NCBI GenBank assembly: GCA_949282275.1
Contig: CASDOO010000002.1
Span: forward strand, 2,022 to 66,021
Length of the DNA stretch: 64,000 nucleotides
Source: an uncultured Bacillota bacterium
Lineage (GTDB): Bacteria; Bacillota_I; Bacilli_A; RFN20; CAG-288
Direction: 5' to 3'
Below, in pieces: positions 2,380 through 55,606 of this stretch. How positions within the stretch are numbered: position 1 is the first letter of the stretch; every line of letters begins with the position of its first letter. The notes under the pieces were generated by a model, which made no database searches, was not told where the DNA came from, and was given only the letters and a program-made list of their open reading frames with translations. Both the position numbers and the translations under genes were made by a program.

Positions 2380-3714
2380 CTAGAGAGCAAGGGAACCCAT
2401 CGGATCCCAAGGCTCAAGCTCAATAGGTTCTTCTTCGTATTGGACAATTTCTTCGGGCGTGAGGTGTTTCTTGTTGATGACGACCTGGTAGACGAACTGA
2501 TCGAACCAGGAATCGTCCATGGCATAGAAGCCCTTGTAGCCATTTTGGTCGCCCCAGGAATTCTCCACCTTCCATCGGTCTGTCGATCCATCGTCAAGGA
2601 CGTTGACGCCGGTAAGGACCATCGCATGGGTCATCAGGGATTCGCCATAGTCGAGCCTTTCCTCCTTGGTCATGGCAAAGGAGGTCGAGAAAAGATTGTT
2701 ATAGTCGAAATTCGATAGCGACATGAGGCCGTCCGTCCTTTGCAGAGACTGACCGACATCGGAGCCAAACCAGACGACCTCGCCGTCCTCAAGCTGAGAG
2801 AGGGCGCAGCGCTTTAGCTCCGCGATGGGGAGATTGAGATAGCGGACCTTCTCGCCGACGAGGTTTCCGAGATACTTGACCGTGAAGGAACGATGGAAGG
2901 GCTTGTCCTTTGTCGGGGCATTGATGAGGGAAACGTACTGGTCCAGGTCGATTCCGACATACTTTTCGTAGAATTCCGTTGGCGTGATGTCCTCGATGCG
3001 GATGAAGCGGTTGTCCTTGTCTCGGGTCTCGTAGGTGAAAGAGACAGGCGGCTTTCCAAGGCAGATGACGAGGATGCCATAGATTTCCTTGAGCATCTCC
3101 TCCTTCTTGGCGCGAAGGGAGGGGAGGTCTTCGCCAGCCTCATGGGCCTTCCTCAGGATCGAGGCGTCCTTGCGGAGCTTGAGCGTGATGAGGCTATCCA
3201 TCTCCCGCGTCCTGGAAGAGGAATAGGTTTCCGGCATCGCTTCCTTGGGACAGACGCCATACTTCTTCGTCAGGCCGACGAACATGTTCCATTGTCCGCC
3301 ATCGCCGATGGGATCCCTAAGAAGATGGGAAAGGAGACGGGAAGATAACTTTTCATTAAGGGTTGCAAGGATGTTCTCGAGGAAGAAATTCGATTTTTCG
3401 AGCTTGTCATAGAAGAGCGGATAGTTCTGGCTGAGTTCCATGTTGTCAAGATGGAGCTTTTCCATGACCTTGAGACGAAAGACGTTATAGGCGGCAAACA
3501 TCCAGCAGCGTCCGGACTGTTTCTGGTTGCAGACCTTGCCGGCATCGAGATCGACGGAATAGTTCTCGACAAGGTGCCGCTTGACCTTGTAATTGGTAGC
3601 CGAGGCCGTGGGACCGTTCTGGGTGACGGCAAAGGCGGCAAGACGGTTCTTCTCGCTCTTGTCGAATTCTTCTTCGAAACGGCGAATATCTTCGATTGTG
3701 ATTTTTTCCTTCAT
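2380..3714 (-). CDS. pepC: aminopeptidase C / bleomycin-hydrolase-type cysteine peptidase (family C1B)
   Basis: 444 aa. Catalytic Cys context QKQSGRCWMFAA. His/Asn region HAMVLTG...WKVENSWG. C-terminal PWDPMGSLAL tail typical of PepC. GGAGAG SD before the ATG. Confidence 0.9.
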   Translation of the reverse strand: MKEKITIEDIRRFEEEFDKSEKNRLAAFAVTQNGPTASATNYKVKRHLVENYSVDLDAGKVCNQKQSGRCWMFAAYNVFRLKVMEKLHLDNMELSQNYPLFYDKLEKSNFFLENILATLNEKLSSRLLSHLLRDPIGDGGQWNMFVGLTKKYGVCPKEAMPETYSSSRTREMDSLITLKLRKDASILRKAHEAGEDLPSLRAKKEEMLKEIYGILVICLGKPPVSFTYETRDKDNRFIRIEDITPTEFYEKYVGIDLDQYVSLINAPTKDKPFHRSFTVKYLGNLVGEKVRYLNLPIAELKRCALSQLEDGEVVWFGSDVGQSLQRTDGLMSLSNFDYNNLFSTSFAMTKEERLDYGESLMTHAMVLTGVNVLDDGSTDRWKVENSWGDQNGYKGFYAMDDSWFDQFVYQVVINKKHLTPEEIVQYEEEPIELEPWDPMGSLAL

Positions 3715-3729
3715 CTGTTCTCTCCTTTT

Positions 3730-5055
3730 CTAGAACAACGTGTTGTAAGGGTCGACCTCGACAAGCTTGGAACCATCGTAGCTTTCGACGACCTTCTTGG
3801 GAAGGTATTTCCTGTTGACGATGACTTGGAAGACATTGTCCGTGAACCATTCGTCGGACATGACGTAGAAACCGTCGAAGCCGTTTTCCTTGCCCCAGGA
3901 ATTCTCGACCTTCCAACGATCGGGCTTTCCTTCGTCATCGATGTTGACGCCAGTCAGGCACATGGCGTGGGAGCAGTGGGCAATGCGCATGTCCAGGCGC
4001 TTTCCCTTGTCATGGAGAAGGTCGATGCCGAAGACGGATTCGTAATCATATAGAGAGGCATCCAGGACGCCTTCCTTACGCAAGGACTGTTCGCCGACGT
4101 CGGCGGCAAACCACAAGGGCTCGTTCTCCTTAAGGGAAGCAATGGCCCCTTGCTTGATGGTCTTCATGTCGGTGGCAAAGAATACGACCGGCTCTCCGCC
4201 AAGGACGTTGTTGACAAGAGGGGCGGCATAACGGACGTTTTTCTTCCAGCCTGCGAGCGGGACATGCGAAAGCGGGACGTATTCCGCAAGCGTGGTGCCA
4301 ATGTGTTTTTCATAGAAGGCAAGAGGCGTCATCCTTTCCTCGCGATGGAAATTCTTTTCCTTGTCCCGGTATTCGAAGACGAAATCCTTCGGCGGAAGGC
4401 CTAGGCAGACGGAAAGGACACGATAGTAGTCCGAAAGCATCCTCTCCTTGAGCTTCCTTGCTTCCTTGGTCCCTTTCTTTTTTGCGCATTCCCGTAGCTT
4501 GAAAGCATCCCTCTTGAGGACCTTCGAAAGAAGGACGTTGAGCTCGCCGGTATCGCAGCTGACGGCTGTGTCGGGCATCGCATAGGAAGGGACGATGCCG
4601 TATTTCCTTACAAGGCTAACGAACATCGCCCAATGGCCGCCGTCGCCCAAGGCCGAATCCAGAAGGAAGACGTTTTCCCTTGATGCGATGTCTTCCGTGG
4701 AACGCTCGAGGATCTTCTCGAGGAAGAAGTTTCCCTTCTCGAGCTTGTCGTAGAACTGGAGATAGGCTTGGGAAAGCTCGATGTCGGCAATGCCCAGCGT
4801 GTCGATAAGCTTCTTCCGGAGGACATTGAGACCGGCAAACATCCAGCAACGTCCGGAGCGTTTCTGGTTAGTGACCTTGCCGCAATCGAGATCGATCGAG
4901 AAGACCGTCGGCAGCTTTCTATTCCGGGAAAGATCCACAAGTGCCTTTCCGATGCCGCAGGACGTGACGGCATTGGAAACGATTTTGGCTTTTTCGTCTT
5001 TTTGGTAGGCTTCCCTGAAGGAAGCGATATTGTCCAAGGTAAGGCTGGAATCCAT
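3730..5055 (-). CDS. pepC: second aminopeptidase C paralog (family C1B)
   Basis: 441 aa. QKRSGRCWMFAG, HAMCLTG...WKVENSWG. A diverged tandem paralog of the neighbour (roughly 40% identity by eye). GGAGG SD. Confidence 0.88.
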   Translation of the reverse strand: MDSSLTLDNIASFREAYQKDEKAKIVSNAVTSCGIGKALVDLSRNRKLPTVFSIDLDCGKVTNQKRSGRCWMFAGLNVLRKKLIDTLGIADIELSQAYLQFYDKLEKGNFFLEKILERSTEDIASRENVFLLDSALGDGGHWAMFVSLVRKYGIVPSYAMPDTAVSCDTGELNVLLSKVLKRDAFKLRECAKKKGTKEARKLKERMLSDYYRVLSVCLGLPPKDFVFEYRDKEKNFHREERMTPLAFYEKHIGTTLAEYVPLSHVPLAGWKKNVRYAAPLVNNVLGGEPVVFFATDMKTIKQGAIASLKENEPLWFAADVGEQSLRKEGVLDASLYDYESVFGIDLLHDKGKRLDMRIAHCSHAMCLTGVNIDDEGKPDRWKVENSWGKENGFDGFYVMSDEWFTDNVFQVIVNRKYLPKKVVESYDGSKLVEVDPYNTLF

Positions 5056-10194: not shown

Positions 10195-12042
10195 ATGGCC
10201 TCTTTGCCCAAGTCCATCCGCTCCCTGACGAAGGATCAGGAGAAGGTCCTGGCCAGCGACATCCGCAGCGACATCCTCTCCACCGCCTATATCCATGGCG
10301 GACATCTTTCGCCGAACCTTGGCGTCGTGGAACTGACCCTGTCCCTGCTCAAGAACTTCGACCCCTACAAGGACGACATCCTTTTCGACGTCGGCCACCA
10401 GACCTATGCCTACAAGATCCTGACCGGACGTTCCCTCGAGAGGCTTCGCCAGTTCGGGGGCGAACCGCCTTTTTCCGACCCGGAGAGCTCGAAGGCGGAC
10501 AAGTTCCGCAACGGACATGCCTCAACGGCCATTTCCGTCGCCTATGGCATGGCCTTGGCCAAGGCTTTGGAAAACGACAAGAGCCATACCGTCAGCATCA
10601 TCGGCGATTCCTCCCTTGCCGGCGGCATCTCCATGGAGGCGCTGGGCCTTCTTGCCACGGACAAGAAGACGAGGCTGATCATCGTCATCAACGACAACGG
10701 CATGTCCATCGGCAAGGACGTCAGCTTCATGGGACGGGAATTCCGGAAGCTGCGCAATTCCCGCTTCTACTTCAGGACCTCCCGCTTCCTTTCGCGCGTG
10801 ATGTCGAAAACAAGGCCGACCAAGAGGCTTTTCCTTTGGATGCGTTCCGTCAAGGATAGGCTGAGGCAGATCGTCCTAAGGCCAACCGTTTTCGAAAGCA
10901 TGGGCCTCAAGTACATCGGCCCCTTTGACGGCCATGACTTCGAGGAACTCGACCTTGCCTTCAGCAAGGCCAAGGCGCTTGTGGAAAACGGGCCCGTCGT
11001 CGTCCATGTCCTGACCAAGAAGGGATATGGCTATTCCCCGGCGATGAAGGACGAAAAGGGAATCTTCCATGGCGTCAGCAGCCGCTTCGACGAAGAGAAG
11101 GCCACTGGGAACGACAACTTCGATTCCTACAAGAAGGAATTCCTCCTTGCGAAGATGGCAGAGGACAAGAAGGCTTTCGTCATCTGTCCGGCGATGGTTT
11201 TCGGCTCGGACCTCGAGGAGGTCTACAAACGCTATCCGACAAGGACAATCGATGTCGGCATTGCCGAGGAAAACGCGGTCACGATGGCAAGCGGCCTTGG
11301 CCTCAAGGGATACCATCCGATCGTCGATATCTATTCGACCTTCCTCCAGAGAAGCTACGACGAAGTCTTCGAGGACATCGCCCGGGAAAGATGCCCGAAT
11401 CTCTTCTTTGTCGAAAGGGCCGGTCTTGTCGGCGAGGACGGCCCTTCCCACCAAGGCATCTATGATGTCGCCTATCTGAGGACGATACCCCATTGTCGCG
11501 TCTTCATGCCCTACGACAGGGATTCCTTCTTCTTCCTTTCCCATTCCCTTTGGTTTACCAAGGATGTCCCGACCTTCATTCGGTGCTCCAAGGATGCGCC
11601 AGTGAACGACCATGCCGAAATCGAGAGAAGGAATGGCTACGACATCGTTTCCATGGCCAAACGCAAGAAACTGGTCATTGCCATCGGCCCAAACGGCATG
11701 GCGCTTTTGACGAAAGCCGCCAAGATGCCTTGGGACAACGTTCTCCTTCTCGATTTGCTTCCGGAGGATTCACTTTGGGATTCCCTGGATTTGTCGTCCC
11801 ACGAGGAAATCGTTCTATACGATCCTTATTCCACGCCGGAGGGGACCTCGGACAGTCTTGCGCGATATCTGCTTTCCCGCCATTATCAAGGACGCTATTT
11901 CCCTTTGTGTCTTCCGAAGGCATTCATCCCCCATGGCAAAGTCGAGGAACTCTATCGACACCTAGGCATGGATGTCGAATCTGCCTATGGGAAGATAATG
12001 GAACTGTTTGGAAAGGACAACCTTGCGGAAAAGAAGGCGTAG
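10195..12042 (+). CDS. dxs: 1-deoxy-D-xylulose-5-phosphate synthase (MEP pathway)
   Basis: 615 aa. GHLSPNLGVVELTLSL, TPP-binding GDSSLAGGISMEALG, transketolase-like C-terminus (GEDGPSHQGIYD). Synteny xseB-dxs-recN as in Bacillus, but without ispA. Confidence 0.93.
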   Translation: MASLPKSIRSLTKDQEKVLASDIRSDILSTAYIHGGHLSPNLGVVELTLSLLKNFDPYKDDILFDVGHQTYAYKILTGRSLERLRQFGGEPPFSDPESSKADKFRNGHASTAISVAYGMALAKALENDKSHTVSIIGDSSLAGGISMEALGLLATDKKTRLIIVINDNGMSIGKDVSFMGREFRKLRNSRFYFRTSRFLSRVMSKTRPTKRLFLWMRSVKDRLRQIVLRPTVFESMGLKYIGPFDGHDFEELDLAFSKAKALVENGPVVVHVLTKKGYGYSPAMKDEKGIFHGVSSRFDEEKATGNDNFDSYKKEFLLAKMAEDKKAFVICPAMVFGSDLEEVYKRYPTRTIDVGIAEENAVTMASGLGLKGYHPIVDIYSTFLQRSYDEVFEDIARERCPNLFFVERAGLVGEDGPSHQGIYDVAYLRTIPHCRVFMPYDRDSFFFLSHSLWFTKDVPTFIRCSKDAPVNDHAEIERRNGYDIVSMAKRKKLVIAIGPNGMALLTKAAKMPWDNVLLLDLLPEDSLWDSLDLSSHEEIVLYDPYSTPEGTSDSLARYLLSRHYQGRYFPLCLPKAFIPHGKVEELYRHLGMDVESAYGKIMELFGKDNLAEKKA

Positions 12043-13708: not shown

Positions 13709-14763
13709 TGGAAAAGAGAATCGTCCATATCGATCTTAACGCCTTCTATGTCCAGGCCGAATGCCTCAAGGATCCTTCCCTTGCGGGAAAGCCATTGGCC
13801 GTCGGCTATGACGGCAGGCGTGGCGTCGTATCGACCGCATCTTACGAAGCGCGCAAGTTCGGCGTCAATTCCGGTATGCCGATTTCAAAGGCAAAGGAAC
13901 TTTGCCCAAATCTTCTTATCATTAATTGCCATTTCAGTCTCTATCGGGAATTTTCGAACCGCTTCTTTGGCTATTTGCGAAAACGTTTTCCGATTCTTGA
14001 ACAGGCTTCCATCGACGAATGCTATATCGACATGACCAAGGAGACAGCAGGCGAGGACCTTGCCGTCTTCCTCTTTGACCTTCAGCTTTCCCTCTACAAG
14101 ACGACGAAGCTGAAATGCTCGATCGGCTGTGGCGCCAATCGATTCCTGGCCAAGATGGCAAGCGACATGAAGAAGCCCATGGGCCTGACGATCCTGACGC
14201 GGGACAACATAGTGGAAAGGCTCTGGCCCCTTGCCATCGGGAAGATGTACGGCATCGGAAAGAAGACGGCCCCGCGCCTGGAAAGCCTTGGCATATTGAC
14301 GATAGGCGACCTTGCCAAGACAAAGGACGAAGGCGTCCGCCGCCTTTTGGGCTCCCAGTTCGATTATTATCAGGGCGAGGCAAATGGGTGGGGAGACGAT
14401 GTCGTCGATACCTCTGCCTTCGATCCCAAGTCCTGCTCGGCGGAAAGGACCTTCCAGGAGGACGTGACAGGCTATGAGGAAGTCAAGGACATGATACGTT
14501 CCTGCTGCGAGGACGTCAGCCATGAATTGAAGAAATATTCCAAGATTGCCAGGATCGTCTCCGTCAAGCTGCGGGACGAGGGCTTTTCCACGCGCTCCCG
14601 TCAAAAGGCCCTTGCCTCGCCCTCAAACGAGGCCTCGGACCTCTTCTTTGCCGCCATGTCCATCTTCGACGCCTTCTATCGCGGCGAGAGCCTAAGACTG
14701 GTCGGCGTGACGGCCGAAAAGGTCTCCGATGTCGAAGAATCGGACAAGGAGGATGGGAAATGA
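13708..14763 (+). CDS. dinB: DNA polymerase IV (Y-family)
   Basis: [14 protein letters not shown]...[10 protein letters not shown]...SIDECYID motifs. The ATG overlaps the recN TGA (TGATG). Confidence 0.93.
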
Positions 14764-15677
14764 CCATACGCGAGGCAATCGAAGGCTTCCTGACCTATCT
14801 TGCCAGCGAGAAAGGCGACACGAAGAGAACACTGGACTGCTACACGATCGATCTGCTGGCCTTCGAGAAGATGACGAAGAAGGAAAGGGCGGAAGACCTC
14901 GACAGCCAGGACTATGTGGATTATCTTCTTCAACTTGCGGAACAAGGCCTTTCCAAGGCGACGCTAGTGCGAAAAGGAATGGCCCTTAGGGGACTTTATC
15001 GCTATCTCAAGATGGAAGGTAAGATCGACGTCCTCCTTTCCAACCTCAAGACGCCGGAAAAGGAAAAGAGACTCCCGAAGACATTGTCCGACGAAGAAAT
15101 CCGAAGGCTTTTCCAGTCCATCGAGACGGGCGACTACAAAGGCCTCCTGGACTTGACGATGATGGAACTTTGCTACAGCTGCGGACTCCGCGTGAGCGAA
15201 CTCGTCTCCCTGCGCATGGATCAGATCAACGTCAAGGGAAAGTACCTGAAGATCCTCGGCAAGGGAAACAAGGAAAGGATGGTTCCCATATCCCAGGAAG
15301 CCGATTCCTATCTCCAGCTCTACCTGAAGGAAAGGAAGACGAAAAGGAAGGCCGGAAAGATCCTTTTCCTCCACAAGGACGGAAAACCGACATCCCGCCA
15401 GTATTTTTTCCTAATGCTACGGAAAAGGGCAAAGGAGGCCGGTATAACGACGCCCGTCCATCCTCACATGCTTCGCCACAGCTTCGCGACGACGCTTTTG
15501 GAGAATGGCGCCCCGATAAGGCAGGTCCAGGAACTTCTGGGGCATAGCCAGGTGGAGACGACGATGATCTATACCCATGTCTCTTCCCGCCTCAAGAAGG
15601 AGGCCTATGACAGGGCAATGAATCGCCGTGCCAAATCCCAGGCGTCTTCCGACAAAGAAGACGCCAAAGCGGTATAA
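14760..15677 (+). CDS. xerD: XerD-like site-specific tyrosine recombinase
   Basis: Core-binding and catalytic domains with R (CGLRVSEL), HxxR (HMLRHSFAT), and H..Y ([16 protein letters not shown]). Precedes deoB as ripX(xerD)-drm does in B. subtilis. XerC versus XerD cannot be settled by eye. Confidence 0.85.
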
Positions 15678-17866: not shown

Positions 17867-18646
17867 ATGACAAATCGAAAAAAAGGAATCCGAGGATTCT
17901 TTCAAAGCAAGATCGTTCTATATGTCTTCGGACTTCTTTTCGTGATTGTCCTATGGGAAATCATTTCCTTATCGACGGGCCAATCGTTTCTTCCGGAATT
18001 CTTCTCCTGTCTCGCAAGGGCCTTTTCCATGCTGGCAATAGGAAGGACCTATGAGGCCATTGGTTATACGCTCCTAAGGCTTTTCCTGGCCTTGCTAGGG
18101 TCTGGCGTCGTTGGTATCCTTTTAGGAACGTTGGCAGGCTATTATCGGGCGCTGGAGACGTTTCTGCAGCCCCTGATAACTGTCCTTCGTGCCTTTCCGA
18201 CGGTCGCCATGGTGCTTCTTCTTATCGTTTTCGTTCCAATGGCTCCTGTATGGGTTGTCTCGTTTGTCGTTTTTCCAGTCCTGTATCAGGCTACGCTAGA
18301 AGGTTCCAGGCAGACTTTGGAAGCCTATTCGATGTTGATCCGATTGCGAGGAAAGAATCGCGTTTCGAACATTACCAAAGTCATATTGCCATTGTCCGTC
18401 GACAATATCAGTTTGGGTTTTGTCCAGGCATTGGGGCTAGGCATGAAAGTCGAAATCATGGCTGAAACGTTTTCCTATTCGACAAATGAAATAGGACTGG
18501 GACAAATGATAATGTCGAGTTATCAAACAGTGGATTACGAAAGGCTGATGGCCTTGGTATTGATTTCACTCTTTTTGATCTTGCTTCTGGAGGGAATATT
18601 GAAATTGGCAAAAGGAAAAATTCATAAACTAATTTTAGGCGAATAA
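17867..18646 (+). CDS. ABC transporter permease (binding-protein-dependent, NitT/TauT-like)
   Basis: 259 aa, about 6 TM helices, and an EAA-like loop region (LRGKNRVSNITKVILPLSVDNISLGFVQALGLGMKVEIMAE). Lower GC than the window average (about 37-50% in lines I counted). Confidence 0.75.
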   Translation: MTNRKKGIRGFFQSKIVLYVFGLLFVIVLWEIISLSTGQSFLPEFFSCLARAFSMLAIGRTYEAIGYTLLRLFLALLGSGVVGILLGTLAGYYRALETFLQPLITVLRAFPTVAMVLLLIVFVPMAPVWVVSFVVFPVLYQATLEGSRQTLEAYSMLIRLRGKNRVSNITKVILPLSVDNISLGFVQALGLGMKVEIMAETFSYSTNEIGLGQMIMSSYQTVDYERLMALVLISLFLILLLEGILKLAKGKIHKLILGE

Positions 18647-18698
18647 ATTAGAGATTGATTTGAATGCTATTTTGTGAAAATCGGCTGTGATTTACAAA

Positions 18699-18726
18699 TA
18701 GTAATTATTTGGTACTATTTAGTAAC
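18699..18726 (+). repeat. left copy of a 28-nt direct repeat (TAGTAATTATTTGGTACTATTTAGTAAC)
   Basis: Aligns with 18988-19015 with one indel on each side and 2 mismatches. Contains the GTACTA core. Confidence 0.8.
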
Positions 18727-18808
18727 TATATTTATTCAACTCTATATTAGTTATATTCTAGTACTAGAAATACACTATATTCACATAAGTGATTGACTTA
18801 TTGTTTTC

Positions 18809-18836
18809 TATTAACATAATAAACATTAGGCGAAGC
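18809..18836 (-). other. dif: candidate dif site (XerC arm - 6-bp spacer - XerD arm)
   Basis: Minus strand reads GCTTCGCCTAA-TGTTTA-TTATGTTAATA. This matches E. coli dif GGTGCGCATAA-TGTATA-TTATGTTAAAT at 22/28 positions (own alignment): XerD arm 9/11, spacer 5/6. Confidence 0.65.
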
Positions 18837-18987
18837 AATATAAACCGGCAAAATATAGTATTTTCCTGGTACTAATGTTTTACTGTGTTCATGATTCCTC
18901 TACTTCTTATATATTTCTTCTCAAATTGAAAAATTAAAATAGTTCATTTCCAGTACTATAAATGTACTATCCATGGACTATACTATT

Positions 18988-19015
18988 TAGTTAATTATTG
19001 GTACTATTTATTTAC
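18988..19015 (+). repeat. right copy of a 28-nt direct repeat (TAGTTAATTATTGGTACTATTTATTTAC)
   Basis: Direct repeat of 18699-18726. Overlaps the mtnN stop codon (19008-19010). Confidence 0.8.
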
Positions 19016-19691
19016 TAAGTTGCAATTTAATGATTTTGACAGCCAATGTCACCGCTTTTTTGCATGCCTCTCCCAAGCTTTCAGTGTATTGCTCTTCATT
19101 CCCTTCTTCTTCGGTGTCATCGGAAATCGTACGCAGGATGCCAAAGGGGATGTTAGCCATATGACAGCACTGACCTACGGCTGCCGATTCCATATCGATG
19201 GCAATAGGATCGTCAAAGTCTTTATCTAGACTCTTCGGCATATTTTCCTTCGTGACAAACAAATCGCCGGTCAGGACAAGCCCAAGGTGGATCTTGGAAT
19301 CCAATTGTCTAGACAATTCGCAAAAGCGAGGAGAGGCTTCGAAATAAAGCGGGTGATCTGCCATCTGGCCTCTCTTCATTCCCGGAATGTCGACATCATA
19401 ATAGGCGGCCTTCGTTGCGCAAAAAGCATCATATCTTTTCAGGCGATGCCGAATCGTCCCGGCGACGCCCGTATTGACGACCAAGTCATATTGGCGTTCC
19501 TGGACCTTCTTCCCAATCGAAAAGGCCATGGCGGTCTTTCCGATGCCGCCGCGCATCAAAGTCCAGAAAATGCCGTCGGAGATAACGCAAAAGGAATCTT
19601 TGCGATCCTCGATTCTCGTGGCTTCTTTGAAAGCTTCTTCGACGGCCTGCCATTCGTCATCCGTGGCTACGATGAGAAGGACGTTTTTCAT
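19008..19691 (-). CDS. mtnN: 5'-methylthioadenosine/S-adenosylhomocysteine nucleosidase (PNP_UDP_1 family)
   Basis: MKNVLLIVATDDEW..., GGIGKTAMAF, NTGVAGT, TGDLFV, IDMESAAVGQ, ILRTISD motifs. The ATG overlaps the rsfS TGA (ATGA). The upstream part of the 252-aa ORF was discarded. Confidence 0.8.
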   Translation of the reverse strand: MKNVLLIVATDDEWQAVEEAFKEATRIEDRKDSFCVISDGIFWTLMRGGIGKTAMAFSIGKKVQERQYDLVVNTGVAGTIRHRLKRYDAFCATKAAYYDVDIPGMKRGQMADHPLYFEASPRFCELSRQLDSKIHLGLVLTGDLFVTKENMPKSLDKDFDDPIAIDMESAAVGQCCHMANIPFGILRTISDDTEEEGNEEQYTESLGEACKKAVTLAVKIIKLQLSK

Positions 19692-22809: not shown

Positions 22810-25413
22810 TTACTTTTTGTCTTTTTCGAAGAGATCGAAGAGAGAAAGCTGGGTGTCGGCCTTGTCGACGCTGGCCTTGACCGGGCTGACCTTGACGACC
22901 TTGGGCGTCTCGATGGGGAACGAGGCGTCGATGACTTCGCCGAAATCGTTCCTGCCCTCCAGGAGGCTCTTTCCAAGTCCCGGTATGTTCTCGCGCATTT
23001 CGGAATTGAGCTCGACGGGGGCAAGCTCGCCCAGATCGATGACGACGTTCTGGTCTTCGCTGGTCGCGCTGACGACGTTCCTCTGGCCGCGCACCTTCTC
23101 GACCTTGCTCAGGGAAACGATGTTCATCGGGTTCTTCTTAAAGATGCGGACGAGGTTGGTCTTCGCCCCGAGCCTTTCTGTCGTCTCGATCTTCGTTGAG
23201 GAGACAAGCCTTGCGGCACGCCTGTCGGCAAGGATAAGAAGGAGGGAGGCCTCCTTGCTGGTCAGGGAGACAAGGGCGGAAAGCGGCGTGTTGTCGATCG
23301 TGGAGGAAATGGCCTTGACGCCCATGGCCCCAAGGGAGACAAGCGGAATGTCCGACTCGTTGAAGCGGCTTGCCCTTCCAAGGCCATCGCAGACGATGAG
23401 GTCGGAGTTGCCACTGGTCATTTCGACGCCGACAAGCGCATCGGCATCGTTGAGAAGCTTGCAGGCACGCAGGGTCCTCTTTGTCAGGCCGGATTGGCGG
23501 AATTCCGTTAGGGCCGTCCTCTTGATCTTGTTCTCCCGAGTCAGCATGACGACGTTGACGCCTTGACGGAATTCATCCAGGAGGAAGACACGAACGACCT
23601 TCTCGTTGGCCTTGAGCGTAAGAAGGTTGTTGAGATGCTTTCCCTCCTCCTTCCACTTGAGCTCCGGAAGCTGATAGACGGGAATGTAGCCATAGTTGCC
23701 CCGATCGGTAAAGAAGAGCAGGGAATCGTGGGTTGAGCATTTCCGACAGAAGACGATCCTGTCCCCGGGCTTGGTCTTCGGCAGGGGAACGATCTCGTCC
23801 TTGTTGGCATCGCAATAGGCCTGATAGGACTTGGGCGTCGTCCTCTTGCTGTAGCCATCCTCGGTAATGGCGACATAGCAGTCTTCCTTGGCGATGAGCT
23901 TGGTCTGGTCGACGGCATTGAAGACGAGCTTCTCGTCGAGGATTTGCGTCCTTCTCTCGCGGGCGAATTCCTTCCGGACTTCCTTGAGGCTCTTGACGAT
24001 TTCGTGATCGAGCTTCTCGGAATCGGAGAGAAGGCCCTTGAGCCTTTCGATGTCCTTGCGAAGGCTTTCGTCTTCCTCCCGCAGGGCGACGATGTCGGTA
24101 TTGGAAAGACGATAGAGAGGAAGCATGGCGATGGCTTCCGCCTGGTTCTCGGTAAAGCCGTAGTCCTCGCGAAGCATCTGCTTGACGGATTCCTTCCCGT
24201 GGCATTTCTTGATCTTGGCGATGACCTCGTCGACGATGGAATAGACCTTGACAAGGCCGGCGACGATTTCGAGCCGCTTCTGGTCCTGCCGAAGATCGTA
24301 TGCCGCCGTGCGGGTCTCGATTTCCCGCTGATGGTCGATATAGGCGTCGAGGATCTCAAGAAGCGGAAGGGTCTTGGGGTGTCCCTTGACGATGGCAAGG
24401 AAGTTGCAGGAAAGGTTGTTTCTCAGGCAGCCTTTCGACTGAAGGTAGTTGAGGACGTCTTCCGGACTGGCGCCCTTCTTGATCTTGATGACGATATGGA
24501 CGTCGTCCTTGGCGGATTCGTCGACGATTTCCTCGATGTTGTCGAGATTGTCCGTCTCCTTCCTTTTCGTGAGATTGGCGACGAAATCGATCTTGACGAC
24601 ACCGGTCGGAATCTGGTCGATCACGATCGTGTTCTCATCGTGGTCGATCGTGACATGGCTATAGACGGTCAGGGTCCCCTTTCCCGTCTCGTAAAGCGAA
24701 CGGATTGCGGCCTTGTCGTCGAGGATGCCGCCCGTCGGGAAATCGGGGCCCTTGATGAAGGCCATGATGTCATCGAGGTTGGCCCGGCGGTGCGTGATCC
24801 GGTAGATGGTCGCATCGATGACCTCGCCGAGATTGTGGCTGGGGATGAACGTCGTGCTTCCGACGGCGATGCCCTGCGTTCCGTTGACAAGGAGATTGGG
24901 GAAGCGTGCCGGAAGGACGGTCGGCTCGAGGGACTTGTCGTCAAAGGTCGGAACCATCTCGACGGTTTCCTTCTCGATTCCGCGGACGAGGTATTCGCTC
25001 AGTCTCGAAAGCCTTGCCTCGGTATAACGGTTGGCGGCAGCGGGATCGTCGTCGATGGAGCCGTTGTTTCCCTGGAAGTCGACAAGGGGCTCTTCCATCT
25101 TCCATCCCTGGGAGAGGTGGACGAGGGCATCATAGATGGAGGCATCGCCATGGGGATGGTAATGGCCCATGACATGGCCGACGATGGTGGCGCACTTGAC
25201 CGTGGGCTTGCTGTAGAGGTCGCCTTGGTCGAACATGTCGTAGATGATCCTTCGCTGGACGGGCTTGAGGCCATCGCGGACGTCCGGAATGGCGCGGTCG
25301 GTGATGACGGCCTTGGCATAGCGGTTGAAAGCCTGGATGAGGACATCGCTCATCTGGGAGGGAACGATGTCTTCGGCAGAAAGGATCTGTTCCTCTTTCT
25401 TCTTACTTTTCAC
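22810..25413 (-). CDS. parC: DNA topoisomerase IV subunit A
   Basis: [43 protein letters not shown] (the NNGS form is typical of Gram-positive ParC). Adjacent parE with divergent plsY as in Bacillus. GTG start preceded by AAGGAGG at 6 nt. ParC versus GyrA was called from motifs and synteny only. Confidence 0.88.
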
Positions 25414-27337
25414 GTTCTACCTCCTTGGTGAATGTATCCTTCGTCGTGAAGTCGATGTTGTTCTCGATCCAGTCCTTTCGCCGATCGGTGTCCTTGCCGA
25501 GGAAAAGATTGACCTTGTCCTTGCACTCCTCATCGTCCTGGATGAAGACGCGGAGCAGCTTCCTTTTCTCCGGAAGCATCGTCGTCGTGGAAAGCTGATC
25601 GTAGTTCATTTCGCCAAGACCCTTGTAGCGGTTGACCTTGTAGCCCTTGCCGATCGCCTGCTTGGCCTTTTCCAGCTCGGTATCGTCATAGCAGTAGATT
25701 TCCTTCTTGCCGTTGTAGACGCGATAAAGGGGCGGGCAGGCGATATAGACATGTCCCGTCTCGAGAAGCGGCTTCATGTGGCTGTAGAAGAAGGTCAGGA
25801 GGAGGGATTGGATATGGCTTCCGTCGTCATCGGCATCGGTCATGATGATGACTTTTCCGTAATGGATGTCCTTGACCTTGAAGTCGGAGTCGAATCCCGC
25901 GCCGATGGTATAGATGAGGGTCGCGATTTCCTTGTTTCCGAGAAGGGCCTTCTCGTCCTCGACGTCGGTGGTGTTCTTGGGCTTTCCGCGAAGCGGGAGG
26001 ATGGCCTGATGGCGGGGATCCCGGCCCTTCTTGGCCGAACCGCCGGCGGAATCGCCCTCGACGATGAAGAGCTCGTTGCGGAGGTAGTCCTTGCTGGAGC
26101 AGGGGGTCAGCTTGTCGGAAAGGTTGAAGGAGGAAATCTTGCTCTTGAGAAGCTCCCTTTCCTTGCGCCTTGCGTTTTCCGCTTGCACCCTGGCTTTCAT
26201 CTCGTCGGTCGTCTTCTTGACGACGGCGCTGGCTTCTCCGTCGTGTTCCTCAAGATAGTAGCTCAGCTTGCTTTCGACGACCTTGTCGACGGCATTGATG
26301 GCTTCCTTCGTTCCAAGCTTGCCCTTCGTCTGGCCTTCGAACTGAAGGAGATGCTCGGGAACCCAGGTGGAAAGGATGGCGACAAGCCCTTCCCTCAGGC
26401 AGTCCCCGTCGAGGGAATCGTTGCTCCGGATCTGCTTGTGGTTGATGGCATAGGAATTGAAGCAGTTGGTCAGGGCCTTCTTCAGGCCGGTGACGTGATA
26501 GCCGCCATCTCCCGTGCGGACGCCGTTTGCAAAGGAGATGATCTTCTCGTCGTAGTTGTCCTTGAGGAAGCCGAAGGTCACCTCGACCTTGATGCCATCC
26601 TCGCTCTTACCTTCGATGTGGATGGCGCTGGTCAGGCCATCCTTGCCCGCCGTGTGGCGGAGATAGTATTCCAAAAGGCCGTTTTCATAATAGAAATCCT
26701 GCTTCCGGCCGCTTCTTTCGTCCAGGAGGTGGAACGTCACGCCCTTCGTCAGGCAGGCCTGGTCATCGAGATGCTGGGCAATCCGGTCGAAGGAGAAATT
26801 GGTGTCCGAGAAAATCGAGCCGTCGGGAAGGAAGCGGACATCCGTTCCCCTTTTCGTCGTCGGCCCGAGGTCCTGAAGCGGGCTTGCCTTCTTTCCGCCG
26901 TTCTCGAAACGCATGAAATGGTCCCTGCCGTCCTTGAAGGAATGGACTTCCATCCAGACGGAAAGGGCATTGGTGACCGAGGCGCCAACGCCATGAAGAC
27001 CGCCGGCGCTCTTGTAGTTGCTTTCGTCGAACTTTCCGCCGCCATGCAGGGTCTGGTAGACGATCTGGAAGCCGTTCATCTTCTCGCGGGCATTGTAGTC
27101 ATAGGGAATGCCGCGTCCCTGGTCGCAGACCTCCAAGGAACCATCGTCGTGGATGGTCACGTAGATATGCTTTCCGTAGCCTTCGTTGGCTTCGTCGACG
27201 GCATTATCGACGATTTCCCATACGAGATGGTGGAGACCGACGGTATCCGTCGATCCGATATACATGCCAGGTCGTTCCCGAACCGGCTCGAGGCCATGGA
27301 GTACGGTCAGGCTTTTGGCATCATATTTATCGCTCAT
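25403..27337 (-). CDS. parE: DNA topoisomerase IV subunit B
   Basis: GHKL ATPase N-terminus (LHGLEPVRERPGMYIGSTD...HHLVWEIVDNAVDE) and a Toprim domain (ELFIVEGDSAGGSAK). Start set at ATG 27337, with GAGGTG 6 nt upstream; the ORF-track start 27346 is a GTG. Confidence 0.9.
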   Translation of the reverse strand: MSDKYDAKSLTVLHGLEPVRERPGMYIGSTDTVGLHHLVWEIVDNAVDEANEGYGKHIYVTIHDDGSLEVCDQGRGIPYDYNAREKMNGFQIVYQTLHGGGKFDESNYKSAGGLHGVGASVTNALSVWMEVHSFKDGRDHFMRFENGGKKASPLQDLGPTTKRGTDVRFLPDGSIFSDTNFSFDRIAQHLDDQACLTKGVTFHLLDERSGRKQDFYYENGLLEYYLRHTAGKDGLTSAIHIEGKSEDGIKVEVTFGFLKDNYDEKIISFANGVRTGDGGYHVTGLKKALTNCFNSYAINHKQIRSNDSLDGDCLREGLVAILSTWVPEHLLQFEGQTKGKLGTKEAINAVDKVVESKLSYYLEEHDGEASAVVKKTTDEMKARVQAENARRKERELLKSKISSFNLSDKLTPCSSKDYLRNELFIVEGDSAGGSAKKGRDPRHQAILPLRGKPKNTTDVEDEKALLGNKEIATLIYTIGAGFDSDFKVKDIHYGKVIIMTDADDDGSHIQSLLLTFFYSHMKPLLETGHVYIACPPLYRVYNGKKEIYCYDDTELEKAKQAIGKGYKVNRYKGLGEMNYDQLSTTTMLPEKRKLLRVFIQDDEECKDKVNLFLGKDTDRRKDWIENNIDFTTKDTFTKEVEREK

Positions 27338-39459: not shown

Positions 39460-40134
39460 TCAGGGAATCCTCTTTTCCCTTGGTCTTTCGTCCATCAGGC
39501 CGATTGCCTGCTCGATAAGTTCCCTTTCCTTTAACCGAACTCTTTTTCCTTCTTCGGGAAGCGCATCGATGTTCGCCCTTTTCTCAAGGAGGAATTCCCT
39601 CAGCAAAGGATCGCCGTTGGCCAAAGGGAAGAGGCCGAATTTCCGTTCCGCCTCTTCCAAGGGCAATAGCCTGCCCATGGCTTTTCGATAAAGGAGGATC
39701 GGATAGTAATGCCTTTCGAAGACGTAGCATCCGCCGACGTTTTCATAGCCAAGTTCCTGGAGAAGGGAAATCGGGCCCTCGAAATTGGACTGCGGCGATA
39801 TGACAAGGCCCTTGATTGGAGAAAGCCTTTCCCTTCCGCGCTCGAGGATTCCCTGGATCGTCCATCCGCCCATGCCGAGTATCGTCAGGAAATTCACGTC
39901 CGGCGGGAGAAAGTCAATGCCGTCCTGGAGGAACGCCTTTGCCATGGAACCGTTTTCGTCAAGGTTCCGCCTGAGGCCTTCATAGGGCCCTTTCTTGTTC
40001 TCGCCCCCATAGCAGGCAATCCCGCGCCTTTCCAAGGCAAGAAGAAAATCGCCCCGATCGGAGCCGACGTCGAAGACGACGGCTCCCTTCGGGACAAGAT
40101 CCAAAGCGGTCAGAAGGCGCTTGGATAGTGTCAT
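39460..40134 (-). CDS. trmK: tRNA (adenine22-N1)-methyltransferase TrmK
   Basis: [18 protein letters not shown]-binding start and ILGMGG. Sits directly after sigA, as yqfN does in Bacillus. ATGA overlap with the rpoD stop. Confidence 0.8.
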
Positions 40135-41561
40135 TCGTTACGGAAGTCCTTCAAGAGCTTTGCGCGGGAGGGATGACGCAGCTTCTTGAGGGCCTTGGCC
40201 TCGATCTGACGGATTCTCTCCCTGGTGACGTTGAATTCCTTTCCGACTTCCTCGAGGGTATGGGTCCTGCCGTCCTCAAGGCCATAGCGAAGGCGGATGA
40301 CGCGGGCTTCCCTCTCCGTCAGCTGCGAGAGGACCTCGTTGATCCTTTCGGTCTCCATGGAACGATTGGCATATTCATAGGGAGACTCGTTGTCCTTGTC
40401 GACGACGAAGTCGCCGATATGGGAATCGTCCTCCTCGCCGACGGGCTTCTCCAGCGAAAGGGGGTCCAGGGCGATCTGCTGGATTTCGCGGATACGTTCG
40501 GCAGACCAGACGCCACCGAGTTCCTCGCTGATTTCCTCGGCGGTGGGATCGCGGTTGAGCTTCTGGACGAGCTTCCTCTGCGCCCGGGTGATCTTGTTGA
40601 TGGTCTCGACCATGTGGACGGGGATGCGGATCGTCCTGGCCTGATCGGCAAGGGCGCGGGTGATGGCCTGGCGGATCCACCATGTGGCATAGGTCGAGAA
40701 CTTGAAGCCGCGAGTATAGTCGAACTTGTCGACGGCCTTCATGAGACCGAGGTTTCCTTCCTGGATGAGGTCGAGGAAATCCATGCCGCGGTTGACATAG
40801 TGCTTGGCGATGGAGACGACCAGCTTCAGATTGCATTGGATCAGTTCGTCCTTGGCGTCCTGATCGCCTTCGAGGACGCGCTTGGCAAGCTCGACTTCCT
40901 CTTCCTTCGTCTTGAGGACCTGGTAGGCACCGATGGCATGCAGATACTGGCGGACGGGATCGGAATTCTTGATGTCCGCCCCGGCCGTATAGTCGACCAT
41001 CTCTTCCTCCTCTTCCTCTTCCTCGAAATCGTCCTCGCCGATGTCTTCCTCGACGGGCGGCAATTCATCCTCCTCGCCGATATCGCCTTCGTCGAAAAGG
41101 CCCTTCTCGGCAAGGAAGGAGACAAGCTCGGAAGTCTCGTCGTCGGTCAGTTCGCGCTCACGGGCAAAGGAGTCGAGTTCTTCCTGGGAGACCTTCTTGC
41201 CGTCGGCCTTGGAAAGCTCGAGGAGTTCCTTCTTGATGGCATCCATGTCGACGATGGTGACTTCGTCCTTGGAATCACCGTCCGTTTCCTTCCCCTCGGC
41301 CTTGTCGGTCGCTTCGTGGAGATCTTCCTCGATGCCGACGATGATGTCCTCCAGAGTCGCGGCAGGCTTTTCGGCCTTTTTGGCGGCCTTTTCCTTCTTG
41401 GGGGCTTCCTTGGCCTTTTTCGCTTCCTTCTTGACGGTGGCCTTCTTTTCCGGCGTTTTCTCTTCCTTCTTCTTTTCGGGCGCCTTCTTGGCAGCCTTCT
41501 TTGTCGTTTTCTTCTCTTCCGTCTTCACGGGAGAAGATTTCGTTTTCTTTTCATTGGGCAC
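40131..41561 (-). CDS. rpoD: primary sigma factor SigA/RpoD with a Lys/Glu/Ala/Pro-rich N-terminal extension
   Basis: Regions 1.2-4.2 are canonical ([85 protein letters not shown]). GTG start with GAGGT 9 nt upstream. Confidence 0.92.
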
Positions 41562-41628
41562 TCTAAAACTACCTCACGATTAATTATTGTTTTTGGCAGC
41601 CGTTTTTTCAAGGAACGAGAGGCAAAAA

Positions 41629-43665
41629 TCAGATGTTTTGGCTCGCCTTCTTGATTTCCTGGACCATTTTCCGCCTTTTGAGCCTCTCTTCCCGCGTTTC
41701 GCCTTCGCTCGAACTCTTGCGAAGACTGCGGGTGTCATCGTAGTGCCGAAGGGCAAAAAGCTTCTTGGCGAGATCTATGCTCCTTTGGAATTTCCTGGAA
41801 TCGTACCAGGATTGGGTCAGGTTCTTCTGGATCTCGACGATTTGGCTGAGATAGGCCTTCTCGTCGACGCCAAGGTCGACGTCACTGCCCTCAAGGCCAT
41901 CGAGGTCGAAGGGATCAGCCTCGTCTTCTTCGCCCTTTCCCGCATCTCCTTCAGACAGGGACGAAAGAAGCCTGTCGTATTCGTCCTTTCCGAAACGGAG
42001 GAGATCCTGGTCCTCGAGATAGATGTTTCCGACCAGGTCGGCAAAGACATTGAAGGCCTCGATGTCGAAGACCATGCGGCTCTTCCGGAAAGTCTCATAG
42101 GCTTCCCGGCTCTGCGGAAGGACGAAACAGATGCCATACTCTTCCCGGTAGAGCACGTCTTTTTCCTTGTCGATGACAAGGTGGAGGGCCTCGCCAAGGT
42201 AGCCGAAAAGCTTCTCGAAGGCTTCCGGGGCGGCATAGCGGCCGGCAAGCTGGACGTCGAAGGTCCGCCGGACGTTGCTGTAGTCGTTCTGACCTTCGCG
42301 TCTTTTCTTGCGTATCGGCCGGAAACTCTTTTCCGTCCCCTGGTCCGCCGTGCTTTCCCTGTTCGGTCTGGAATAGAGCCTCTGGAGGGTATCGGAATCC
42401 AGTCCTGTCCTTTTGGCAATCGCCTTCAGGTCCTTGATCCGGGACACCTCCCCTTCCGCCAGGATATAGGGGCGGCTTGTCTCGATGAATTCCTCCAGGT
42501 CCTTGGAATCCTCGAGCGCCTTCCGTCCGGCAAGCTTCCTTCCCAATAGGAACATCGTCGGGGAATAGAGACGATGGGCCTGGCGGACGAGTTCCGTCAT
42601 CCCCTCCTTGGTCAGGACCTCGTCGGCATCCTTGGCCTTGTCGAACTTCCAGCAGATACGCGTCGGAATCCGATGCTTGAGAAGAAGGGGCAAGGCCCGC
42701 TCTTCGCCTAGCTGTCCGGCCTCGTCGGAATCCAGAAGGAGACGGACTTCGACCTTGAGCTTCTCCAAGGCCAGAAGATGCTCTTCCGTCAAGGCTGTCC
42801 CCATCAGGCCGACAGCGGAAGGAAGACCGGCGCGTTGCATGGCGATGACGTCCATGAAGCCTTCAAGGAGATAGACGTAGCCATCCCGCCTTGCGCTTTC
42901 CTTCGCGCTGTCGAAGTGGTATAGGATCGCGCTCTTGCGGAAAAGCTCCGTTTCCGGATAATTGATGTACTTTCCGCCATCCTGGCTTTCCTGGATCTTG
43001 CGCCCGGAAAAGCCGACGACATGGCCGTCGTTGTCACGGATGGGAAACATGATCCGTCCGCAGTAGCGATCCTTCAGCTCGGCGGAATTGGACAGGATGC
43101 CAGCCCTTTCGAGGACCGGGACATCGTATCCGAGATTGCGCAGGGAACGGATGGCGATGGTCGGATCGAAGGGCGAAAAGCCGATTCCGAAATGCTCGAT
43201 CGTCTCCCTGGCGATTCCCCTTTCCTCGAGATACTTCCTTCCGAGATGGCCGTCGTTGGACTGCAGGAAAAGCTGGTAGAAGCGGCAAAGCACGGAAAGG
43301 GCATCCAGTTCCTCGGGGAACTTCTCGCGAAGCACGTCCTTCTTCTCGTGATAGGAAGATATGTCCGCGGGAAGGGGAATGCAGCAGATCTCGCAAACCT
43401 TCCGCAAAGCCTCAAGGGAGGAAAGATGGGCATACTTCTCGACGAACTTGATGGTATCCCCGCCGGCATCGCAGGAAAAGCAATGGAAGAATTTCTTCTC
43501 CGGATCGATCTGCATCGAGGGATGGGAGTCGTTGTGGAATGGGCAAATGGATTTGTATTTTTTCCCGGCCTTGACGATGGCATCGCTTCCGAGATAGTAG
43601 GCGATGACCTTGACGATATCGCTCTTCTCGTTGACTTCCCGGAAGATGTTGCCCGAATTGTCCAT
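41629..43665 (-). CDS. dnaG: DNA primase
   Basis: Zinc ribbon CPFHNDSHPSMQIDPEKKFFHCFSCDAGGD, a Toprim domain (LLEGFMDVIA), and dnaG-sigA synteny. Confidence 0.93.
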   Translation of the reverse strand: MDNSGNIFREVNEKSDIVKVIAYYLGSDAIVKAGKKYKSICPFHNDSHPSMQIDPEKKFFHCFSCDAGGDTIKFVEKYAHLSSLEALRKVCEICCIPLPADISSYHEKKDVLREKFPEELDALSVLCRFYQLFLQSNDGHLGRKYLEERGIARETIEHFGIGFSPFDPTIAIRSLRNLGYDVPVLERAGILSNSAELKDRYCGRIMFPIRDNDGHVVGFSGRKIQESQDGGKYINYPETELFRKSAILYHFDSAKESARRDGYVYLLEGFMDVIAMQRAGLPSAVGLMGTALTEEHLLALEKLKVEVRLLLDSDEAGQLGEERALPLLLKHRIPTRICWKFDKAKDADEVLTKEGMTELVRQAHRLYSPTMFLLGRKLAGRKALEDSKDLEEFIETSRPYILAEGEVSRIKDLKAIAKRTGLDSDTLQRLYSRPNRESTADQGTEKSFRPIRKKRREGQNDYSNVRRTFDVQLAGRYAAPEAFEKLFGYLGEALHLVIDKEKDVLYREEYGICFVLPQSREAYETFRKSRMVFDIEAFNVFADLVGNIYLEDQDLLRFGKDEYDRLLSSLSEGDAGKGEEDEADPFDLDGLEGSDVDLGVDEKAYLSQIVEIQKNLTQSWYDSRKFQRSIDLAKKLFALRHYDDTRSLRKSSSEGETREERLKRRKMVQEIKKASQNI

Positions 43666-48864: not shown

Positions 48865-49839
48865 TCAAAGGAGGATATCGCGTATGGTCAGCGTTTTACC
48901 GATGGCTTCGACGTCCTTCAAGGCCGCATCCAGGTATTCGGAGTCGTAGAAGATTTTCCTATAGACACGAAGGAAGTTCTTGTCCTTGGCGTTGGAAAAA
49001 GTTACCCGTCCTTCCCTGTTTCGTGCCTGAAGAAGCGGGAAGAGATAGTTCTCCGCCTCCTGAAGGGAAAGGCGCGGGAGAAGGTCGATGTTTCTTATGA
49101 ACAGCGCCGGAACGGTTCCGGCAGAAACCCAATCCTGGCGTGCCGCTTCCAATTCGGAAGGATCCTTGAGGACACGGAAAGCGCTAAGAAGGTCTTTCAG
49201 ATCGAGATAGGCCGTCTGGATTCCGCTCCTTGCAAAGAAATAGGCGCCGAAAGATAAGGCCATTTCAGGCAAAACATCGTTTCCCACAGGAACGAAAACA
49301 AGGCCACGGAAATCCTTTCCGGGATTCTCGCTTGCCAAAAGGATGTCCCCATAGGCAATTTGGACGTCCTTCATCTCCGGGCGCTCTTGGACAAGCTGGA
49401 GGAATTGAACCGCCTGGCGATAGATGTCATCGGCAGGAATGTCCATCGGGGATATCCTTGAAAAGACCTGTTCCTTTTCGCGCTGATAGGGACAGGGTTT
49501 CAAGGAAAGGGAAATCTCGTCGCAGCTTTCGTCAAAGGCAATCTCGCAGGAGAAGCCTCCCCTTTTCTTCGGGCAGGACAAAATGCCTTCCGAGCAGGCC
49601 CGGCAGATTTCGCGATCTTTCAGATAACTATAGATATTCCCGAGCGAATTGGAAAAGGTTTCCGGCGTTTTGCAAAGCGATTCAATCTTTGCCTTGGCAC
49701 GGGCATCCTGGCCAAGCAGGCGTTTCACCTCCAGGCGAAGAAGCTCGAAATCCCCTTCCGGAATCGATACGTTGCCTGGGAAGCTTCCCTGTTGGGAAGC
49801 CTTCATTTCGTCCAAACCCGATTTTTTGTCCTTTCTCAT
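48865..49839 (-). CDS. dnaI: DnaI-like helicase-loader homolog with degenerate AAA+ motifs
   Basis: Cys-rich N-terminal domain (CRACSEGILSCP...C...C). The C-terminal region is colinear with the DnaI AAA+ fold, but the Walker A position reads GLVFVPVGNDVLPE and the Walker B position reads ALFIRNID. ATGA-coupled to the upstream dnaB-like gene. Confidence 0.7.
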   Translation of the reverse strand: MRKDKKSGLDEMKASQQGSFPGNVSIPEGDFELLRLEVKRLLGQDARAKAKIESLCKTPETFSNSLGNIYSYLKDREICRACSEGILSCPKKRGGFSCEIAFDESCDEISLSLKPCPYQREKEQVFSRISPMDIPADDIYRQAVQFLQLVQERPEMKDVQIAYGDILLASENPGKDFRGLVFVPVGNDVLPEMALSFGAYFFARSGIQTAYLDLKDLLSAFRVLKDPSELEAARQDWVSAGTVPALFIRNIDLLPRLSLQEAENYLFPLLQARNREGRVTFSNAKDKNFLRVYRKIFYDSEYLDAALKDVEAIGKTLTIRDILL

Positions 49840-51207: not shown

Positions 51208-51281
51208 ATCCTTGTTTATTTTCGGTCATTCATTTTCACTGAATGAAGAGACGAGAATTCTGTATAGACAAGGAGAAAGAA

Positions 51282-52745: not shown

Positions 52746-52766
52746 AAGGCAAAGGAGCATACAGGT

Positions 52767-53645: not shown

Positions 53646-53660
53646 AGAAAGAAGAACAAC

Positions 53661-55589: not shown

Positions 55590-55606
55590 CACGAGACGAT
55601 ACGCAA

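Follow-up and report, generated by a model that had tools for sequence, protein, structure and literature searches.

A dif-type recombination site flanked by five copies of a 32-bp unit has been identified in an AT-rich non-coding island within a 64-kb window (the whole stretch analysed, 64,000 nucleotides of contig CASDOO010000002.1 from an uncultured member of the Bacillota), at the point where genes on the two strands converge. With a probability of about 0.8, this island is the chromosomal dif locus, marking the replication terminus region, of an uncultured gut member of the Bacilli related to Candidatus Enterosoma; the dif site itself, a linked Xer-family recombinase gene and base-composition skew corrected for codon usage all support the replication terminus that an initial annotation of the sequence had placed here. 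The dif site is a further case of a known element, and the new part is the array of positioned units around it.

dif, its linked recombinase gene and the replichore junction

The 28-bp dif (Table 1) is the sole site with at most nine mismatches to E. coli dif on either strand of the window, and a dif matrix for the clade scores it at 40.1 bits as against 9.1 for the next best position, the matrix itself including this site. Its left arm, ACTTCG, resembles the ACTTCC arm of B. subtilis dif (string in PMC3025954). A dif is found at the syntenic position in relatives L007, L008, L009, L094, L127/L159, L131, L137, L160 and L163 (L-numbers denote loci on other contigs, with ±10 kb per locus), and the arm consensus ACTTCGNNTAA...TTATGTTAA is common to 10 genomes; the site is single within the window and within each 20-kb relative locus. 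The likeness to the chromosomal dif/XerCD system of E. coli and the dif/CodV-RipX system of B. subtilis extends to a 28-bp site of two 11-bp arms and a 6-bp centre, with a highly conserved TTATGTTAA arm, to its uniqueness in the window and position at the replichore junction, and to an encoded Xer-family recombinase. Unlike those model sites, the dif described here has its Xer gene tightly linked (3 kb) throughout the clade, and is set within a dedicated AT-rich island with positioned units, an arrangement not reported for the models.

The Xer protein scores 274 bits against the NCBIfam model for XerD and 262 bits against that for XerC, both below the equivalog cutoffs; the window encodes neither a further Xer protein nor FtsK/SpoIIIE. 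The Xer gene lies 3.1 kb upstream of the island, a linkage kept across the clade, with dinB-xer-deoB retained beside the island in L131, L134 and L137; this arrangement matches the ripX-drm neighbourhood of B. subtilis. By analogy with established Xer/dif biology, two Xer-family recombinases would bind the two dif arms and, where sister chromosomes have formed a dimer, would resolve it into monomers during cell division by strand exchange over the 6-bp centre.

Gene orientation was assessed on a 55-gene map consisting of the gene calls of the source metagenome scaffold, each entry of which translates cleanly (0 bad). Thirteen genes to the left of the island lie on the plus strand and two on the minus strand, with six and 34, respectively, to the right (Fisher p=1.5e-6); the optimal strand change-point falls exactly between the permease and mtnN genes, and 47/55 genes conform to it. 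The convergence described in the initial annotation (14 of 16 genes on the plus strand to the left, 35 of 41 on the minus strand to the right) is thereby confirmed, with counts differing by a few small open reading frames (ORFs) only. The left arm has no opposed genes other than a tandem pair of paralogues, 444 and 441 amino acids (aa) long, of the Peptidase_C1_2 family (PepC-type aminopeptidase) at 2380-5055 on the minus strand. Spurious antisense ORFs of up to 1458 aa stand opposite pyk-ROK-thrS, sigA and pheT (51216-55592, minus; 40128-41654, plus; 58967-61393, plus; and others), so that naive longest-ORF calling would miscount strands in this window.

Raw cumulative GC skew reaches its minimum at ~18 kb, that is, at the island. 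Coding strands are strongly C- and T-rich at third codon positions (GC3 skew ~-0.2 to -0.35, AT3 skew ~-0.17), and raw skew therefore follows gene orientation, which accounts for the origin-like minimum. The comparison of genes on the two strands takes out this codon effect: third-position GC skew is -0.221 in 47 island-directed genes vs -0.352 in eight opposed genes (Mann-Whitney p=0.0012), and third-position AT skew is -0.184 vs -0.337 in the same two sets (Mann-Whitney p=0.010), so that the strand directed toward the island is relatively G- and A-rich. A leading strand relatively rich in G and A is the signature expected for PolC-type Firmicutes; the island-directed strands bear this signature, as expected if forks converge at the island. 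The initial annotation had anticipated a switch in cumulative skew and gene-strand bias at this position, and, as examined locally, the gene-strand switch and the GC3/AT3-corrected skew both fall at the island, whereas raw cumulative GC skew is misleading. Known KOPS, SRS and Lactococcus motifs exhibited no skew across the island within the 64-kb window, which is too small for k-mer polarity; as a terminus signal, k-mer polarity was rejected, the top switching words being confounded with gene orientation. A small plasmid, the alternative named in that annotation, is excluded by the core chromosomal gene content of the window, which includes the housekeeping genes leuS, nusB, dxs, recN, relA, sigA, dnaG, ftsZ, pheST, parE-parC and several tRNA synthetase genes.

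Several observations weigh against assignment of the island as the dif locus of the terminus region: the sign of raw GC skew is opposite to that of a textbook terminus; its explanation leans on the eight opposed genes; the window encodes one Xer gene only, scoring below the cutoffs for both XerD and XerC; and the evidence for the terminus and for a single-copy site is local to the window. Predicted dif sites in Firmicutes and Proteobacteria have been placed at 0-1.39% of genome length from the GC-skew switch, with the conclusion that termination happens near dif and not at dif (PMC3025954); the dif described here is a marker of the terminus region, not necessarily the exact point at which forks meet.

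The island and its phased 32-bp units

The G+C content of the island is 25.2% (18647-19007) vs 54.8% for the whole window, and, in a 361-bp sliding window over all 64 kb, values below 40% occur only at one contiguous run of starts, 18295-18926 (with 18292 in addition). The flanks are lowered too, to 35.3% in the last 150 bp of the permease gene and 42.7% in the 3' 150 bp of mtnN. No intrinsic terminators were found in the 18647-19007 gap, the longest island ORF is 40 aa, promoter-like matches in the island are at chance level (5 vs 4.1 expected), and the closest match to a DnaA box there has two mismatches, with none at one or fewer. The description given in the initial annotation is confirmed: a dip to about 25% G+C, here found to be the only one in the window, extending into both neighbouring genes; no canonical terminator hairpin, no ORF of 60 aa or more and no DnaA-box-like sequence; and flanking genes correctly named as a permease and mtnN, with Pfam matches to BPD_transp_1 and PNP_UDP_1.

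The five composite units in this island have the consensus aTAGTattTTnnTGGTACTAntTantTACTAn and the layout aTAGTa-N6-TGGTACTA-N6-TACTAt, near-palindromic about a central GTAC (example 32-mer, ATAGTATTTTCCTGGTACTAATGTTTTACTGT). Composites were found nowhere else in the 64-kb window, in which 6/7 GTACTA words fall inside the island, and the outermost copy, C5, overlaps the stop codon and last three codons of mtnN. Across all islands, distances between half-sites (T[A/G]GTA, TAC[T/C]A) peak only at 3, 11, 14 and 25 bp (counts of 50, 59, 50 and 16, against 0-13 in the background); each unit is therefore made up of four half-sites T[A/G]GTA in the order > > < < at offsets -11, 0, +3 and +14, with same-direction pairs one helical turn apart. 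Hairpin or RNA folding of the units is weak (z-scores -2.3 to +0.5) and an Rfam search of the island returned no family match, leading to rejection of an RNA-element or hairpin reading; without single-strand folding, the units have the appearance of sites bound as duplex DNA, and their layout, judged from sequence, would suit a tetramer or two dimers on one helix face. Four to six units are packed within ~400 bp per island, and in the window, L007 and L008 the ~190 bp adjoining the XerC arm are taken up by three of them; the gap being filled with AT-rich putative binding sites, the island is AT-rich.

Conservation of the array was examined along two routes. A permease protein search of GTDB genomes recovered three species-level relatives: L007, an uncultured Firmicutes metagenome-assembled genome (MAG; contig CASGEC010000001.1; permease 73% identity), and L008, Candidatus Enterosoma merdigallinarum (62%), each with dif and five composites; and L009, a 27%-GC Bacillales MAG (32%), with dif but only same-direction TTAGTA units in 11-bp steps. 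A search of Joint Genome Institute (JGI) metagenomes with a pattern derived from the composite alone, dif not included, gave 92 hits, most of them single chance matches or 11-bp satellites; in L094, L127/L159, L131, L137, L160 and L163, several composites were accompanied by a near-perfect dif within a few hundred bp, and L134 and L170 are incomplete copies of the island. Gene order common to the islands with composites and dif is dinB-xer-deoB-(ABC transporter)-island-mtnN-rsfS-nadD/yqeK-yqeH, with the XerC-type arm always toward mtnN; MtnN identity among these genomes is 36-77%, mostly 40-50%. A matrix built from the five units of the window finds 1-5 matches per island in eight other genomes, vs ~0.01 in shuffles and 2 in ~71 kb of flanks. 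In L009, mtnN is absent and rsfS abuts dif; an unannotated 172-aa ORF (10771-11332), without a Pfam or PDB match, stands between permease and dif and abuts four TTAGTA/TTGGTA units spaced 14, 11 and 11 bp.

When the islands are superimposed on dif and turned so that the ACTTCG arm is leftmost (the dif frame), all nine have one unit on the XerD side; its centre falls at +59.5 in six genomes and between +79 and +81 in the other three, two positions that differ by ~two helical turns. The spacer between XerD arm and unit keeps a length of 30±1 bp at 0.44 pairwise identity, vs 0.40 by chance, and constant length without sequence conservation indicates selection on geometry relative to dif. On the other side, units at about -48, -133 and -181 are common to the window, L007 and L008, and in L160 and L163 a terminator-like hairpin and a half-unit occupy the XerC-arm side instead of these shared units. 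In most genomes the XerD-type arm gives way immediately to a run rich in A (AAAATAAA or a similar sequence), at +15 to +25 in the dif frame (18798-18808 in the window), and the 30-bp spacer is 57% A on that strand; the run may be an extended recombinase footprint or a bend.

Look-alike arrays were also encountered away from dif. In IMG/VR, the composite pattern gave single matches only, ~40 of which represent the tandem 11-bp repeat TTGGTACTAAC of one phage family, which satisfies the pattern trivially; in phage contigs of ~50 kb (L033, 8200-8350; L014, L032/L071, L034, L037, L046; IMG/VR sample 3300045988), the region separating an endolysin-like gene from tail genes holds 3-4 tandem copies of TTGGTACTAAC, then a hairpin and another 11-bp repeat (AATTGCAACTT). 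These phage repeats share with the composites the core TGGTACTA and a period of 11 bp, but are direct only. On L146 (1950-2020), a gammaproteobacterial-type plasmid fragment, a > > > < < array is located between the 3' ends of rep and an operon of parA and a small ORF; its Rep3 initiator has 60% identity to a Methyloprofundus plasmid Rep, the closest being Methyloprofundus and Thiothrix plasmids. The combination of Rep3, ParA and a small protein was rejected as a centromere clue, the Rep affinity being unrelated to the clade, and the array is probably an independent iteron or centromere array. Non-dif arrays in L096, L107, L173 and L175 share no common family and lie upstream of mixed small ORFs (Xre helix-turn-helix, zinc ribbons, phage terminase context).

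Table 1. Positions of dif, the composite units and associated genes in the 64-kb window
Feature	Position	Strand	Remarks
AT-rich non-coding island	18647..19007	.	Gap between convergent permease (+) and mtnN (-)
dif, 28 bp, 5'-GCTTCGCCTAA TGTTTA TTATGTTAATA-3' on minus strand	18809..18836	-	22/28 matches to E. coli dif
XerC-type arm; 6-bp central region; XerD-type arm	18826-18836; 18820-18825; 18809-18819	-	By analogy with E. coli dif
Composite C1 (ATAGTAATTATTTGGTACTATTTAGTAACTAT)	18698..18729	+	Centre +109 in dif frame; 0 mismatches to ATAGTA-N9-TACTAT; 30.4 bits
Composite C2, universally positioned copy	18747..18778	-	Centre ~+60 from dif centre, XerD-arm side
Composite C3	18855..18886	+	Centre -48, XerC-arm side; 31.9 bits; position kept in L007, L008
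Composite C4 and one extra 11-bp-phased unit (18950-18981)	18939..18981	+	Centre ~-132; position kept in L007, L008
Composite C5	18987..19018	+	Centre ~-180; 28.9 bits; orthologous copy in L007, L008
Xer-family tyrosine recombinase gene, 305 aa, XerD-like	14760..15677	+	Pfam Phage_int_SAM_1 and Phage_integrase
ABC-transporter permease gene, last of left (plus-strand) replichore arm	17867..18646	+	Pfam BPD_transp_1; strand change-point
mtnN-type nucleosidase gene, last of right (minus-strand) arm	19008..19691	-	Pfam PNP_UDP_1; synteny

Possible functions of the units

The function favoured here, with low confidence, is that of an accessory or architectural element of Xer recombination, in which a putative sequence-specific protein would occupy the units and thereby assemble, around dif, a nucleoprotein complex whose geometry is fixed. 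The units would then act as operators for a tetramer, or two dimers, on one helix face beside dif, in a complex comparable in principle to that formed on the accessory sequences of plasmid cer and psi sites. At cer of ColE1 and psi of pSC101, ArgR/ArcA sites lie in ~200 bp of flanking DNA at a defined position from the Xer core, with PepA also involved, and the likeness lies in the defined distance of the sites from that core (here, putative binding sites at +59.5 or ~+80). The known cases are small plasmids with ArgR/ArcA boxes on the XerC side only, whereas the array described here is chromosomal, has units on both sides with the fixed one on the XerD side, and is built from a motif unrelated to ARG or ArcA boxes. 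The XerD-side position counts against an accessory role, as known accessory sequences adjoin the XerC arm of plasmid sites and are regarded as ill suited to large replicons. A survey describes 28-bp sites without accessory sequences as the rule for Enterobacteriaceae replicons >250 kb. Also to be set against an accessory role, the XerD-side copy is the only unit with clade-wide fixed spacing, and no candidate for the binding protein was found in the window, beside any island or via the non-dif occurrences: a Pfam/NCBIfam scan of all unannotated proteins in the window turned up no DNA-binding candidate close to the island, and no small gene recurs beside the nine islands.

An unlikely alternative is that the units serve as a landmark, read by a protein of terminus recognition or segregation and tethering the dif region at the division site in the manner of MatP/matS, ZapT or a plasmid centromere. 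Short half-sites phased at 11 bp on one helix face are typical of centromere arrays, for example R1 parC, and the units have this phasing; the array is moreover limited to the dif island. Terminus-tethering proteins are known only in Proteobacteria, leaving the Firmicutes without a known equivalent. MatP/matS of enterobacteria and ZapT of Caulobacter share with the array a sequence- or region-specific marking of the terminus near dif, but their sites are spread over 0.8-0.9 Mb, in contrast to 4-6 units in ~400 bp. The island has no linked gene of ParA/ParB type and no other linked candidate, the sole plasmid with a similar array (L146) is gammaproteobacterial and unrelated, and tethering has no obvious need for a fixed 30-bp spacing to the XerD arm.

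Less likely still is a compact polar fork trap, with the units as Ter sites for an RTP- or Tus-like protein that makes forks meet at dif. Ter of B. subtilis is likewise 32 bp and composed of two imperfect inverted repeats, overlapping as in the units, with terI and terII ~0.1 kb apart, and the RTP-Ter system thus resembles the array in its bipartite 32-bp site suited to four monomers and in the close spacing of opposed copies at the terminus. Units are also grouped to either side of the strand switch, the order in L007 and L160 being minus-type units, then dif, then plus-type units, and the half-site [A/T]ACTA recurs in the B. subtilis Ter consensus. The best match to that consensus nonetheless has 9/25 mismatches, with 94% of shuffled islands as good, and the best match to the E. 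coli Ter core has 3/12 mismatches in an AT-rich context only. Fully symmetric cores are present in 14/41 units, the polar units are not mirrored across dif (4/9 on the XerC side and 7/4 on the XerD side; Fisher p=0.22), and L163 reads in the opposite sense to L007. In the absence of a Ter match and of mirrored or otherwise consistent polarity, a polar fork barrier is not supported, and is not the favoured function of the units. No rtp gene and no RTP-family or PadR-like Pfam match was found in the window or beside the nine islands; dif lies inside the unit cluster, as opposed to kilobases away in B. subtilis; and helical phasing to dif is not something that a fork trap would account for.

It is very doubtful that the units are protein roadblocks that end converging transcription and shield dif from RNA polymerase in place of missing hairpins. 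The window's gap has no intrinsic terminator, and outermost units abut or overlap stop codons (C5 on mtnN, the L160 unit at 4899 on an 804-aa gene, the L163 unit at 1696 on mtnN), but terminator-like hairpins are present in L160, L163, L134 and L009, and in L160 and L163 the hairpin lies between units and dif, so that transcripts would cross the outer units before terminating; fixed spacing is again left unexplained. Finally, a non-terminus identity for the island, as a replication origin, what is left of a mobile element once integrated there, or an ordinary AT-rich gap in which a word resembling dif arose by chance, is highly improbable: the origin-like skew minimum and the resemblance of AT-rich DNA with phased repeats to iteron origins are countered by C3-rich coding strands that account for the skew sign, by converging rather than diverging genes, by the lack of a DnaA-box cluster in the island and of dnaA/dnaN in the window (on which grounds oriC was rejected), by the lack of rep, integrase-cargo or transposase genes flanking the island, and by the occurrence of island, dif and units at the same place between housekeeping genes in genomes as diverged as their MtnN proteins, which excludes recent insertion or a chance match.

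Neighbouring genes and significance

The mtnN gene begins a mtnN-rsfS-yqeK-yqeH block kept beside dif clade-wide. Just 4-8 kb from dif, beside plsY, lie parC and parE (22810-27337, minus strand), in a block also next to the island in L160; their best NCBIfam matches are Gram-positive topoisomerase IV A and B, below equivalog cutoffs, and the decatenase genes thus adjoin the site where decatenation and dimer resolution are needed. At 48865-51050 (minus strand), a gene for a WHD_DnaB-domain protein (B. subtilis DnaB-type helicase-loading factor) is followed by one for a 324-aa protein that is unannotated and may be a DnaI-like partner; counted with dnaG and sigA, they place replication genes ~30 kb or less from the terminus. 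Six metagenome contigs of the same species (L001-L006) are identical over 1.8 kb across the island but for one C/T variant, which falls at 18797 in the spacer that separates dif from composite C2. In L002, at ~11500-11650 (window ~19500), an indel breaks mtnN into 123-aa and 51-aa pieces, and L004 (12849-13520) departs after a truncated yqeK into other genes, including one for a TonB_C protein; these differences near the terminus are strain variation or misassembly.

No earlier description of a dif-phased 32-bp operator array was found in the literature searched, in which the unit core words returned primers and a single predicted operator, that of LysX in Desulfovibrio, with no more than the half-site in common; the array is, to that extent, undescribed. 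On chromosomes, FtsK-type translocases are regarded as the controlling factor in Xer recombination, control through accessory sequences is, to our knowledge, thought confined to small plasmids, and the only fork traps we know of belong to two unrelated systems, Tus and RTP. Against this background, a tetrameric DNA-binding protein acting on 4-6 positioned 32-bp operators, whether in a cer/psi-like control of chromosomal Xer recombination or as a third, non-RTP, non-Tus system for fixing termination, is a possibility, if a somewhat unlikely one.

The dif call is routine but useful in anchoring the terminus of an uncultured genome, and the accompanying analysis illustrates that raw GC skew can show the opposite sign under strongly C3-biased codon usage. 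The main point is the flanking array, a conserved and clonable dif-phased 32-bp DNA target in 4-6 copies, which offers a handle with which to isolate a new terminus-associated protein and to test which function exists in this lineage.

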